A stretch of 64,000 bases of DNA from a virus (taxonomy: Duplodnaviria; Heunggongvirae; Uroviricota; Caudoviricetes), in the IMG/VR virus record IMGVR_UViG_2585427708_000005, one strand, 5' to 3'. Positions 30,744-34,049 of the stretch are shown one piece after another. Under the pieces are notes generated by a model. It was not told where the DNA came from, ran no database searches, and worked only from the letters and a program-made list of their open reading frames with translations. A program made the translations under genes and the position numbers. Position 1 is the first letter of the stretch. The number at the start of each line of letters is the position of its first letter.

Positions 30744-30771
30744 ATTACACTAATAAATTTATTAGAGCAAT
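30744..30771. promoter_or_regulatory. Overlapping pair of C1 operator-like sites (forward 15/17 at 30744..30760; reverse 17/17 at 30755..30771)
   Basis: attacactaataaatttattagagcaat; the perfect site overlaps the dmt stop codon and precedes the leftward tRNA/upl-plp/ban block. Confidence 0.65.
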
Positions 30772-33700
30772 ATACCCAAAACGTCATGAGCTACACCTCG
30801 AGTGTCCCCCTTACAAGACACAGAACGTCTGGCAAAAAGAGGTTCCACTCTGAAGCCACTGTCATGATAAAGCTCTCTGATGTTTGGCGCGCCACTGTTA
30901 GTAATGAGAACCTTTGCACCTCGACGATGAGCATCCGTCAACAGAGACACCAGGCGTTTTTGCTCTTCAAACTTAAAGTCATGACCGGAATAGTTCGTGA
31001 ATCCCTCTGTATTTGGAAGCGGTTCATACGGCGGATCGCAAAAGATGACATCTCCTTCTCCGGCAGCTTCAATCACCGCTGCAAAATCACCGCATACAAA
31101 CTCAGACCGCCCTTCCGCACCGAGGAAGGCTTCCATCTCCTGTAATGGGAAATACGGAGTTTTATACTTCCCATAACCGACATTGAACTCACCGGCCTGG
31201 TTGTAACGCGTCAATCCGTTAAAACAATGTCGGTTCAGGAACAAAAACGCCGCTGCGCGATGTAAATCATCATAGACTTGTTTGTTAAACGCATTCCGTA
31301 CTGCCAGGTATCCTTCCTGTGTGTTGTAGTCCTGGAAGAAACGATGTGCCAGAGTGATAAGTGAATGCGCCTCGCGTTGCAGAGTCTTGTAAAAGTTAAT
31401 CAGGTCAGCATTCACATCATTTAGCAGATTTTCCTGGTATCCGGCATTCATGAAGACAGCTCCGCCACCAACGAAAGGTTCAATCAGGCGCTTCCCTTCT
31501 GGCAAATAGCGAAAGATTTGTTCCAGAACACCAAATTTTCCACCAGCCCATTTGAATATGGACCGTTCGAATTCTGCCGCTGGTTTAACTTTTCGCTCTT
31601 TTGTTTCACTTCCTTCTTTCTGCCGACATACGGCCTTAGTAATCCGATCGCCAATCCAGCGCATTACTGGTATTGCCATACTATTGCCGATCGCTTTGTA
31701 ACGCGGTCCGTCAGCTGCAAGCATCGCGGCCTCTTCTTCGCTTAAATCTGGATAGTGATTGCGAAGGTATGCCAGTTCATCTGAAGAAACTTTTTTACGC
31801 TTTTCCGTCGGGATCAACGTATGCCCCTCAGGAAAACCTTGCAGCCTTTCACATTCGACAGGGGTAAGACGGCGGACAGCTACTTCTGCGTTTCTTACTT
31901 CATAGCAAACAGCTGTTGGATTTTTAGCCATTAGAGATGGTGAAGTATTCTTAGTTGCAGCATGTTGTGTACCGCTCATACGCTCAGGAAAAGCCAATGT
32001 AACAAGATGCTCATGGCTTTCTTGCTCACGTGCCCGCAATGTACCATGCCCTTCTGACCAAAAACCTGCTCCTGTGCTGCTAAAAACGGCAAGGTCAGTG
32101 GCATCTTTAAAATCTCTTGCCTTTACTGTCGATGCGGTTTCATCGTCAATATATTCCCCAAATGCTGCCATCCTGAAAGCGTTTACGGCTTTCGTCGATT
32201 TCATACCGGGTGGCATGTCAGCGTGTAGGCATGGATTTAGGCTTTCGCCACTGATTGCAGCGCCATTTGCAATAATGGCGGAAGCGATTTCCTTCTTTTT
32301 TCGGCTCGGCGCAATATTCCGGCGCACGCCTTCGAACTCAAAAAGTACCGTTGCGGGATCGAGATCTGTTCGAGCACTTGCGACAACAAACACGCGTCGG
32401 CGTCGTTGTGCCACTCCGAAGTATTGGGCATCAAGGATTCTCCAGGCCACTTTTCGCTGCGGTCCATAAATACAACCACACTGCGGCCACTTTGGAACAT
32501 GGCAACCGGTTTTGCCATCCCACCGCCAGAACGCGTTGCTTTTTCCTGATTCAGGTCGATCACCTGGTTCAAATGGCACATCTTCTCCAGCCAATCCGGC
32601 AAGGAAACATCCGAAGGCGTTATCTGCCGATGACAAGACTCCTGGGACATTTTCCCAGACGATAACGGCTGGTTTGAGAAATGACTCAGCCCGTTTGTCG
32701 TCAATTGCATTTGCAAGCTCCACATACTTTAAAGTTAGCGCGCCACGCTCATCATCAAGCCCACCACGTAATCCCGCGATACTGAATGCCTGACAGTTAT
32801 GGACCACCGCACCATTGAGGATATAGGAATGATCACCTTCGACTTCTATGTTGTATACAGTATCTAGGCCTACCGATTTAAACTCTTTGACTGTTCGTAA
32901 AAGCATTCCATGAGCCAATCTTGATTTACGTGACAATTTCTGCGGGCAGATTGTTACCTGATAATAATTCCGTTGATTTACCACGCGATCCTCGATCACT
33001 TTTTTGGGCTCAACTTCAATAAAGCTGACCGAAGAAACATAACCACAAGTCTGTGACAACCCCGCAACGCCCCAAGCAAGCGCAGAACTAACACTATTAA
33101 TTCTAAATCCCGCTTTACCACTTGGTGTCCCATCAGTATCAAGATAGCCTTGTAAAAACACATGACGCAATGGATGCGACATCACCCATGCAGGGATACG
33201 CTTAGCATGGCTTAACTCGCCAAAATGTTCATTAAGCCAATTGGCATAACACGTATCATTCAAGGTTACTTTGATGCTCCCTCGGATTTCGCTTGCCACG
33301 GAAAATATGTTTTCTGGTATGCGGCAATGAAACTTTCTCAATTTCTGGCAATTTATGCCAAAAACAACCGCCTTCTTAGATTTACCTCTCCATCTCCTAA
33401 TATATCCATCGCCAACATAAGCGCCCGCAAGATACATAGCCTGTTCTTCAGACAAGAACCGAGAACAAATATCTGGAAATGCAATATTGAAATTAGTTAG
33501 AGCGCACCATTGATATCCCGGCATATCACATGCTGCTCGCCATTCCGGTTCAGACAACAACTCTCTCTTAAAATATGTGCCATTTTTCCGGGTGTTTTGG
33601 GCTTTCCACCGAACAGCCAGGAAGGGATGGTCATTGGTTGTTCTTATACCTAAAGGCTGCCCAACGGCATTAAGTAACCCCGTATTAGCTATTTTTGAAC

Positions 33701-34049
33701 CAACTCTTTTTACTTGTTGTAACCGCCCGAGATGACTGACTACGTAATCACCAGGGCAAACATTTTCTATTGGTTTATAGCCATTTTTACAAAGAACCAT
33801 ATGCCCCGCGGTAAAACATGGTGTTCCCCCGACGAGCACGTCAGGGGATTCGATTTCCCCAGCCAAGACTTTTTTGGCAAGTTTTTTCATGTCGCCAAGG
33901 TTGGCAACATGGGGCCAGCGGAGCGCAAGAACGGCCGATGGAAAAGGCTCGATTTCAGCAAACCACGCCGGACGCATACCCAACGGTTCCCAGGCAATAC
34001 TCGCGGCTTCAATTCCACTGCAAACAGATCCATAGCACAGCTCTTTCAC
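30762..34049 (-). CDS. dmt: Bifunctional DNA methyltransferase: N-terminal C5-cytosine MTase (intein-interrupted) fused to C-terminal Dam-like N6-adenine MTase
   Basis: 1095 aa. C5 motifs GSVCSGIEA (I), [12 protein letters not shown] (IV, split by the intein), VWENVPG (VI), QRRRRVF (VIII), GNSMAIPV (X); Dam motifs KWAGGK and DPPY. Confidence 0.9.
32796..33818 (-). mobile_element. Intein (341 aa) with LAGLIDADG homing-endonuclease domain, inserted between Pro and the catalytic Cys of the C5-MTase PCQ motif
   Basis: Starts [20 protein letters not shown] (block A), TNDH (block B), [10 protein letters not shown] and [10 protein letters not shown] (LAGLIDADG motifs), ends VVHN followed by extein Cys; removing it leaves 754 aa with intact GGTPCQAFS. 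Confidence 0.88.

Follow-up and report, generated by a model that had tools for sequence, protein, structure and literature searches.

A predicted intein with a nested homing endonuclease in the catalytic motif of the bifunctional DNA methyltransferase Dmt of a P1-like phage

What might explain why a P1-like phage encodes a DNA methyltransferase Dmt of 1095 amino acids (aa), whereas the Dmt of the phage P1 reference has only 754? The gene lies at 30762-34049, on the minus strand, of a 64,000-nucleotide (nt) stretch from the IMG/VR record IMGVR_UViG_2585427708_000005 (Caudoviricetes); that whole stretch was analysed and is called the window below. The source of the window is a P1-like phage (Punavirus): positions 30700-34100 are 100% identical, dmt included, to Escherichia phage vB_EcoM-Ro157c2YLVW (MH160767) and 99.1% identical to phage RCS47, and phage P1 matches them with 98-99% identity over 70% of the length only. 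The reading frame is real and is the ortholog of P1 dmt, a C5-cytosine methyltransferase fused to a Dam-family N6-adenine methyltransferase. Aligned with P1 Dmt, it contains a single clean in-frame insertion of 341 aa between Pro77 and the cysteine of C5 motif IV (GGTP/CFTAGHMV ... NGAVVHN/CQAFS, the slashes marking the junctions). Its sequence and modeled structure identify the insert as a class-1 intein with a nested LAGLIDADG homing endonuclease, for which splicing and homing are predicted. It is highly probable that the locus as a whole is a P1-like dmt ortholog controlled at the operator Odmt, that its motif IV is split by an intein able to splice and home, and that the operator lying over its stop codon belongs to the ban operon.

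The gene and its product are laid out as follows, with residues numbered in the precursor unless stated otherwise.

30762-34049, minus strand: dmt precursor reading frame, 1095 aa, 121.7 kDa, with a GTG start and a TAA stop at 30762-30764
33819-34049, minus strand: N-extein, aa 1-77, with C5 motif I and the first half of motif IV (GGTP)
32796-33818, minus strand: predicted intein, aa 78-418, 341 aa, 38.3 kDa, an exact insertion relative to P1 Dmt
33033-33461, minus strand (approximate): predicted LAGLIDADG homing-endonuclease domain, intein residues ~120-262, with PF14528 at aa 298-361, a helical alpha/beta block in the model, and matches to I-SceI and I-DmoI
30765-32795, minus strand: C-extein, aa 419-1095, opening with the catalytic Cys of motif IV (CQAFS), followed by motifs VI, VIII, IX and X, a linker and the Dam module
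31875-32303, minus strand: variable (target-recognition) region of the C5 module, ~aa 583-725, from alignment with OP279344
30777-31568, minus strand: Dam-family module, aa 828-1091, with KWAGGK at 833-838 and DPPY at 1005-1008
C5 motif I: aa 7-15
C5 motif IV: split, GGTP at aa 74-77 and CQAFS at aa 419-423
C5 motif VI: ENVPG, aa 466-470
C5 motif VIII: QRRRRV, aa 548-553
C5 motif IX: aa 726-740
C5 motif X: GNS, aa 788-790

The insertion in motif IV and its relatives

The insertion is exact relative to eight intein-less alleles as well as to P1 Dmt. When it is spliced out in silico, motif IV becomes contiguous (GGTPCQAFS), 742 of the 754 remaining residues (98.4%) are identical to P1 Dmt (AAQ14041), and the match to the C5 methyltransferase profile PF00145 improves from 102.5 to 123 bits (E from 4e-29 to 2e-35), its best stretch now running without a break over aa 8-135, which takes in motifs I-VI. 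The residues of class-1 splicing are present: C78 (Cys1), T138-x-x-H141 (intein T61 and H64, block B), H417-N418 (intein H340 and N341), and C419 at the +1 position, which is at the same time the catalytic Cys of the C5 methyltransferase. Two LAGLIDADG motifs carry their acidic residues (LAGAYVGD137GY and LQGYLDTD229GT, intein numbering), and the profiles LAGLIDADG_3 (PF14528; 34.2 bits, cutoff 22.5) and TIGR01443 (NCBIfam intein_Cterm; 28.8 bits, cutoff 15.6) both match. An AlphaFold2 model of the intein, built on an alignment with eight relatives, has a mean predicted local distance difference test score (pLDDT) of 86.6 and a predicted template modeling score (pTM) of 0.86. Compared with the PDB by Foldseek, the model finds PI-SceI first (E 5e-18), then the TliVMA intein (4.7e-17) and PhoVMA, PI-PfuI and PI-PkoII, down to E 1e-10, and next after these inteins the free-standing LAGLIDADG enzymes I-SceI and I-DmoI. 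The intein sequence used directly against the PDB returned weak matches only, to the Spl DnaX mini-intein (E 0.0015) and PI-PkoII (E 0.024). The initial annotation of this gene had listed motif IV among the C5 motifs and had missed the intein; in the encoded polypeptide 341 aa part GGTP from CQ.

The two methyltransferase modules, which that annotation had combined in one polypeptide from their motifs, are confirmed by profile searches. Besides PF00145, PF02086 (Dam family, D12 class) matches at aa 834-1066 (E 2e-56, 191.9 bits) and TIGR00571 scores 248.8 bits (cutoff 114.85, E 7e-74); the Dam module also matches the chains of E. coli Dam crystal structures in the PDB (E 3e-57). The claim of a C-terminal Dam-type domain, which depended on such a profile match, thus stands. 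The module scores 243.4 bits against the E. coli Dam equivalog model NF008152 / PRK10904, under its cutoff of 441, and is therefore a Dam-family paralog and not an equivalog of the host Dam. The positions given earlier need adjustment: C5 motifs I, IV, VI, VIII and X are all present, but motif IV is split and the C5 module (~aa 1-805) reaches well past the N-terminal half in which they had been placed, and KWAGGK and DPPY are found in a Dam module that makes up the last quarter of the protein and not the last third.

At least three forms of the C5 variable region occur, with intein-free allele lengths of 2265, 2019 and ~2423 nt, and the 2423-nt form of dmt (L015; also in phage SJ46) is frameshifted. 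No difference separates the window allele from allele L007 in any of the four segments compared (the N-extein, the intein, 480 nt of the C-extein, and the last 900 nt), yet they measure 3288 and 3042 nt; the difference of 246 nt points to a cassette swap of the variable region. By their sequences, the different forms imply that predicted cytosine-methylation specificities differ among P1-like phages.

Is the intein peculiar to dmt? In a first protein search the relatives were 47-52% identical, all were PF00145 proteins, and all had the insertion at GGxP/C...N/CQ; they included a mini-intein without endonuclease. An exhaustive phmmer search over 1.84 billion representatives gave 186 matches at E <=1e-30 and 1571 at E <=1e-10. 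Among the top 148, 137 align across the whole intein and 125 are inserted at xP/C...N/C, mostly followed by Q. These 125 same-site cluster representatives are 29-99% identical (median 35%), and T61, H64 and N341 are invariant among them. When the window is counted with them (126 sequences), the acidic residues of the endonuclease are kept in 119 (Asp137) and 124 (Asp229). By a motif search, the other representatives of the top 148 matches all lack the Dam fusion. By tblastn against phage genomes, same-site inteins were located in Mannheimia phage vB_MhS_587AP2, Propionibacterium phage B22, E. coli jumbo phage A4 and Pseudomonas phage Lana, and the A4 relatives ph0011, UE-S1 and TH47 also match. 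No intein is annotated in the inspected records of these phages.

Distribution and mobility of the intein

The intein is common and patchily distributed. In PLSDB, dmt-like DNA occurs in 498 plasmids and intein DNA in 129, at full length in 126 of these. Among 5426 complete E. coli genomes, 480 have the Dam part of dmt and 152 have the intein, in 153 copies that are all full length and at least 95% identical; 148 copies are on plasmids and five on chromosomes. The intein is thus found in about 26-32% of P1-like plasmid prophages or dmt alleles. Both intein-plus and intein-minus alleles are found in E. coli, E. albertii, E. fergusonii and Salmonella, in plasmids typed by MOB-suite as IncY and as 'IncHI1B', and with either of two C5 variable regions. 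The phage records are also divided: the intein is present in RCS47, Ro157c2YLVW and OP279344 and absent from the P1 reference, P7, SJ46 and JL22. The genome in OP279344 comes from a laboratory P1vir stock (bioRxiv 10.1101/2022.09.09.507302). In this record ('phage P1 del res del mod'; OP279344.1, L003, 1552-4593) the intein-containing dmt has an alternative variable region, and the stock differs from the P1 reference at the dmt locus.

Sixteen alleles, eight intein-plus and eight intein-minus, were compared. Pairwise, the eight inteins are 98.6-100% identical, whereas in the same alleles identity falls to 90.5% in the N-extein and 90.7% in the Dam part. This is the pattern expected from recent horizontal spread and suggests that the intein is much younger than its host gene. 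The Pro77 codon immediately before the insertion is CCA in all eight intein-plus alleles, which share one flanking haplotype, and CCT in all eight intein-minus alleles, which have two, GGTACGCCT/TGTCAG and GGAACACCT/TGTCAG; apart from the Pro77 codon, one of these empty-site haplotypes equals the intein-plus flanks. Such a pattern would fit co-conversion during homing, and would equally fit a single origin followed by recombination. The patchy distribution of an apparently young element also fits homing, the cleavage itself being predicted.

The same data bear on the alternative that the intein splices and that its endonuclease is inactive, the patchiness being the result solely of vertical descent together with ordinary homologous recombination between P1-like plasmids. 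Mosaicism is pronounced in P1-like genomes, as the swap of the variable-region cassette between otherwise identical alleles illustrates, and the single flanking haplotype of the intein-bearing alleles, including the CCA codon, is compatible with one origin. However, the acidic residues of the two LAGLIDADG motifs are retained, in the window as in 119-124 of the 126 family members, and an intein at least 98.6% uniform between exteins that diverge to 90.5% is what recent horizontal spread would leave. We consider an inactive endonuclease unlikely.

Several observations count against a functional, mobile intein. Two intein models of Pfam stay under their gathering scores, Hint_2 narrowly (28.1 bits against 28.4) and Intein_splicing by more (21.7 against 35.8). 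Block F has Asn at position 4 (VYNIEV) where Asp is usual; Asp is common at this position in class-1 inteins without being obligatory, so that Asn is compatible with membership, and within the family Asn is found in 108 of 126 members and Asp in 17. The ratio of non-synonymous to synonymous polymorphism (pN/pS) in the intein is based on 20 polymorphisms only, and the low diversity of the intein could partly reflect one recent lineage and recombination, and not homing driven by the endonuclease. Finally, activity of the C5 module in any P1 Dmt is itself only 'perhaps' according to the P1 annotation (AF234172).

Might the intein, then, be decayed or domesticated and no longer splice, leaving the C5 module dead and selection acting only on the Dam module that P1 needs? 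The requirement of P1 is indeed for GATC methylation, and the Asn of block F, the two low Pfam scores and the 'perhaps' of the P1 record all agree with such a history. It is nevertheless very improbable. All canonical splicing residues are present (C1, T61/H64, H340, N341 and C+1), and T61, H64 and N341 have not changed in 125 relatives that are as little as 29% identical (range 29-99%). The intein is of full length in 153/153 E. coli copies and 126/129 plasmid copies, the dmt reading frame is intact in all eight intein-bearing alleles checked, and the C5 motifs 3' of the intein are fully conserved with the intein-less alleles. The intein pN/pS of 0.23 (11 synonymous and nine non-synonymous polymorphisms), compared with 0.16-0.19 in the exteins, fits purifying selection, albeit in a small sample. 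A splicing-competent intein with an active endonuclease remains the preferred interpretation.

Operators, GATC sites and the proposed role of splicing

A perfect 17/17 operator-like site overlapping the dmt stop codon had been reported in the initial annotation and is found at 30755-30771 on the minus strand. Does it regulate dmt? The regulatory sites and upstream genes are these.

35300-35316, minus strand: Odmt (former Op68), predicted monovalent C1 operator, identical to the P1 site ATTGCTCTAATAAATAT, abutting Pdmt with one base shared
34944-35228, minus strand: uhr, upstream gene of the dmt operon
34046-34951, minus strand: hrdC, upstream gene of the dmt operon
30755-30771, minus strand: Obana (former Op72a), predicted C1 operator half-site, ATTGCTCTAATAAATTT, 17/17, covering the dmt TAA stop and holding the P1ban -35 hexamer TTGCTC
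30744-30760, plus strand: Obanb (former Op72b), predicted C1 operator half-site with two mismatches (15/17), overlapping Obana in inverted orientation
30742-30747: P1ban -10 hexamer TAATAT, 17 nt past the -35 TTGCTC

The operator consensus ATTGCTCTAATAAATTT has 11 matches with up to three mismatches in the window, against 0.37 expected by chance, and the 71 nt around the dmt stop codon differ from P1 by one base. In the P1 record (AF234172), Obana and Obanb form the bivalent operator Obanab (former Op72ab), which overlaps the promoters P1ban and P2ban and controls the downstream ban gene, and Pdmt drives uhr-hrdC-dmt from behind Odmt. Because the region matches P1 Obanab with its downstream-reading promoters, the operator over the dmt stop codon is not part of dmt regulation: it is the neighbor's site, that of the ban operon, where C1 binding is predicted. 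The assignment of this operator to dmt itself is not supported, and control of dmt is placed at Odmt, 1.25 kb upstream of the dmt start.

These observations also contradict a simpler view, in which the full-length product is the enzyme, a plain two-domain methyltransferase, and the stop-codon operator regulates dmt itself. Profile matches for both domains are strong and the operator does overlap the stop codon, but motif IV is split by 341 aa with the fold and residues of an intein, the ban promoters of Obanab read away from dmt, and the operator at the head of the operon lies elsewhere. This view is extremely improbable. A role for the stop-codon operator as an attenuator or terminator of dmt was also considered and rejected, since the annotation makes this site the operator and promoter of ban, and the sole terminator-like hairpin is further downstream. 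That hairpin, followed by a T-run, is at 30562-30584 on the minus strand; it lies ~180 nt beyond the ban promoters, in sequence that is annotated as 'dicF-like' in P1. In 29500-31000 Rfam gave no match to DicF at the gathering threshold and three tRNAs only.

The P1 Dam activity is tied to pac and to the origin, and both are rich in GATC in the window, as the initial annotation stated. The pac site has seven TGATC(A/G) hexamers at ~2690-2870, arranged as in P1 pac. The oriR-like origin at ~37550-37790 combines a DnaA box (TTATCCACA) and five GATC sites with iterons, at least five repeats of ~18 bp that resemble AAATCGCGTnCAGTCAAC. These iterons are presumably unlike those of P1 oriR/incC. The phage may carry a plasmid replicon different from that of P1, many related plasmids being typed as 'IncHI1B' and not as IncY by MOB-suite. 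The proposed link between the Dam activity and these GATC-rich sites is established P1 biology: because P1 requires Dam methylation at pac, dmt is essential in Dam- hosts (PMC12707154).

How might such a gene and its intein work? Given the identity to the annotated P1 sites, the C1 repressor would silence uhr-hrdC-dmt at Odmt in the lysogen. Since the operon lies behind a C1 operator and Dam methylation is needed at pac, expression of the enzyme and the intein would be expected in the lytic phase, the time at which two P1-like genomes can come together and homing can take place. Established intein chemistry and the canonical residues suggest that Cys78 performs an N-S acyl shift to form a thioester, which would be attacked by Cys419, the +1 residue and future nucleophile of the methyltransferase. 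Cyclization of Asn418 would release the 38.3-kDa intein, and an S-N shift would leave a ligated mature Dmt of 83.4 kDa with a contiguous GGTPCQAFS. As motif IV is split by the intein, the primary translation product should not be a functional C5 methyltransferase until it is spliced; C5 methylation would be possible only afterwards, because the nucleophilic Cys is parted from the rest of the motif. The Dam module, a separate C-terminal domain, may work in the unspliced precursor and would methylate GATC in the service of pac cleavage and origin function, as in P1. When there are two P1-like genomes in a cell, the LAGLIDADG endonuclease of the free intein probably cuts the intein-less dmt at a site of the GGTCC(T)/TGTCAG type, and repair of the cut would copy the intein into the empty allele. 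Obanab would repress the downstream tRNA and ban genes and not dmt.

Splicing could act as a gate on one activity, because the +1 residue is the catalytic C5 Cys while the Dam module is a separate downstream domain. In the extended form of this idea, the intein is a post-translational gate: the precursor provides GATC methylation for pac and the origin at once in lytic growth, and C5 methylation comes only after splicing that may be conditional, e.g., on redox state through Cys1 and Cys+1, while the intein, one of a large family specific to the PCQ motif of C5 methyltransferases, homes actively from one P1-like plasmid prophage to another. We regard this combination as quite improbable. The dmt intein allows one to test whether splicing gates one activity of a bifunctional enzyme, and since P1 is amenable to genetics, the homing of an intein from one plasmid prophage to another could readily be studied with it.

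P1 was already known for the fusion enzyme, its role and both operators; what is new is the intein. Neither for P1 dmt nor for any C5 methyltransferase was a description of an intein found in the literature, the coverage of which was incomplete and left the intein databases outside the search, so that a prior description is possible; for inteins in phage methylases, only the N4/N6 enzymes of actinophages were found. Matches of the intein search in papers on Thermus, BASEL, Mannheimia and CB7 were unrelated. The exact dmt protein is present on 723 contigs, and all 15 cluster members listed are named 'Dam family site-specific DNA-(adenine-N6)-methyltransferase'. In the database records of dmt that were examined, the gene is named 'Dam family' or 'DNA' methyltransferase and the intein is not annotated, and the automatic labels of the relatives go no further than 'Hint domain-containing protein' or 'DOD-type homing endonuclease domain-containing protein'. 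An intein in the catalytic motif of a phage DNA enzyme is expected in kind, but the one in dmt is common and belongs to a classic model phage lineage: between roughly one quarter and one third of the P1-like plasmid prophages of E. coli, Salmonella, E. albertii and E. fergusonii have it, as does a laboratory P1vir stock. Comparisons of dmt alleles by size or annotation are misleading if the intein is not recognized, and the same applies to dmt knockouts and methylomes in P1vir stocks. More generally, inteins recur at the PCQ motif of C5 methyltransferases, in at least 125 clusters at 50% identity that span phages of Proteobacteria and Actinobacteria.

Comparison with P1 and with other inteins

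The gene order uhr-hrdC-dmt, followed by tRNA-Asn, tRNA-Tyr and tRNA-Thr, and the operators of the window match those of P1 (AF234172) except for the additional tRNA-Tyr. Orthology and synteny (Odmt, uhr-hrdC-dmt, Obanab and the downstream tRNA genes) identify the protein as P1 Dmt, the 'bifunctional DNA methyltransferase' of AF234172, formerly known as the P1 'dam' gene, and the GTG start of dmt and the TGA stop of hrdC overlap as GTGA. The tRNA-Tyr (GTA) gene is at 29923-30009 on the minus strand, between tRNA-Asn and tRNA-Thr, and is annotated in MH160767 too; it is absent from the P1 reference, where tRNA-Asn and tRNA-Thr stand alone. At dmt codon 74 the P1 reference (AF234172; mod749::IS5 c1.100) also encodes Trp, where motif IV otherwise has its conserved first Gly. 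VWGTPCQ is found in the P1 reference only, as opposed to VGGTPCQ in the window and 14 other alleles, and judged by motif conservation W74 could impair the C5 activity of the reference Dmt.

Close parallels to the dmt intein are the unannotated inteins of other C5 methyltransferases, in vB_MhS_587AP2, B22, A4 and Lana and in ~125 metagenomic representatives, which share the insertion point (xP/C...N/CQ or CT), the length class and the conserved residues at 27-56% identity. The Mannheimia copy differs in that it is in a truncated or split gene. In vB_MhS_587AP2 (L021, 664-2500), a 48%-identical intein is followed directly by a break in the C5 gene (VVHN/CQSDKGG...stop), the remainder is annotated as a separate 'cytosine-specific DNA methyltransferase' coding sequence, and an HNH homing-endonuclease gene comes next; this C5 gene may be decaying or doubly invaded.

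With PI-SceI (Sce VMA1), the Tli and Pho VMA inteins, PI-PfuI and PI-PkoII, the dmt intein shares the HINT fold with a nested LAGLIDADG domain, Cys1, TxxH, and HN/Cys+1, although identity is only 11-17% and the dmt intein has Asn at block F position 4. PI-SceI is larger than the 341-aa dmt intein, and the hosts of the PI-SceI-type inteins are V-ATPase, ribonucleotide reductase or polymerase, in contrast to the DNA methyltransferase here. The inteins of mycobacteriophage and actinophage DNA methylases (DNMT-1/2; Kelley et al. 2016, PMC5050341; Genes 2023, PMC9957025) are reminiscent of the dmt intein in another way, being likewise phage-borne, of the LAGLIDADG type, in DNA methyltransferase genes, and patchily distributed. 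The mycobacteriophage DNMT intein in Pacc40 gp60 is a relative of the dmt intein at 27% identity, inserted at a different site. The actinophage hosts are N4/N6 enzymes (N6_N4_Mtase) interrupted at MHV/C...KN/CPLQ, whereas the dmt intein occupies the catalytic PCQ of a C5 enzyme.

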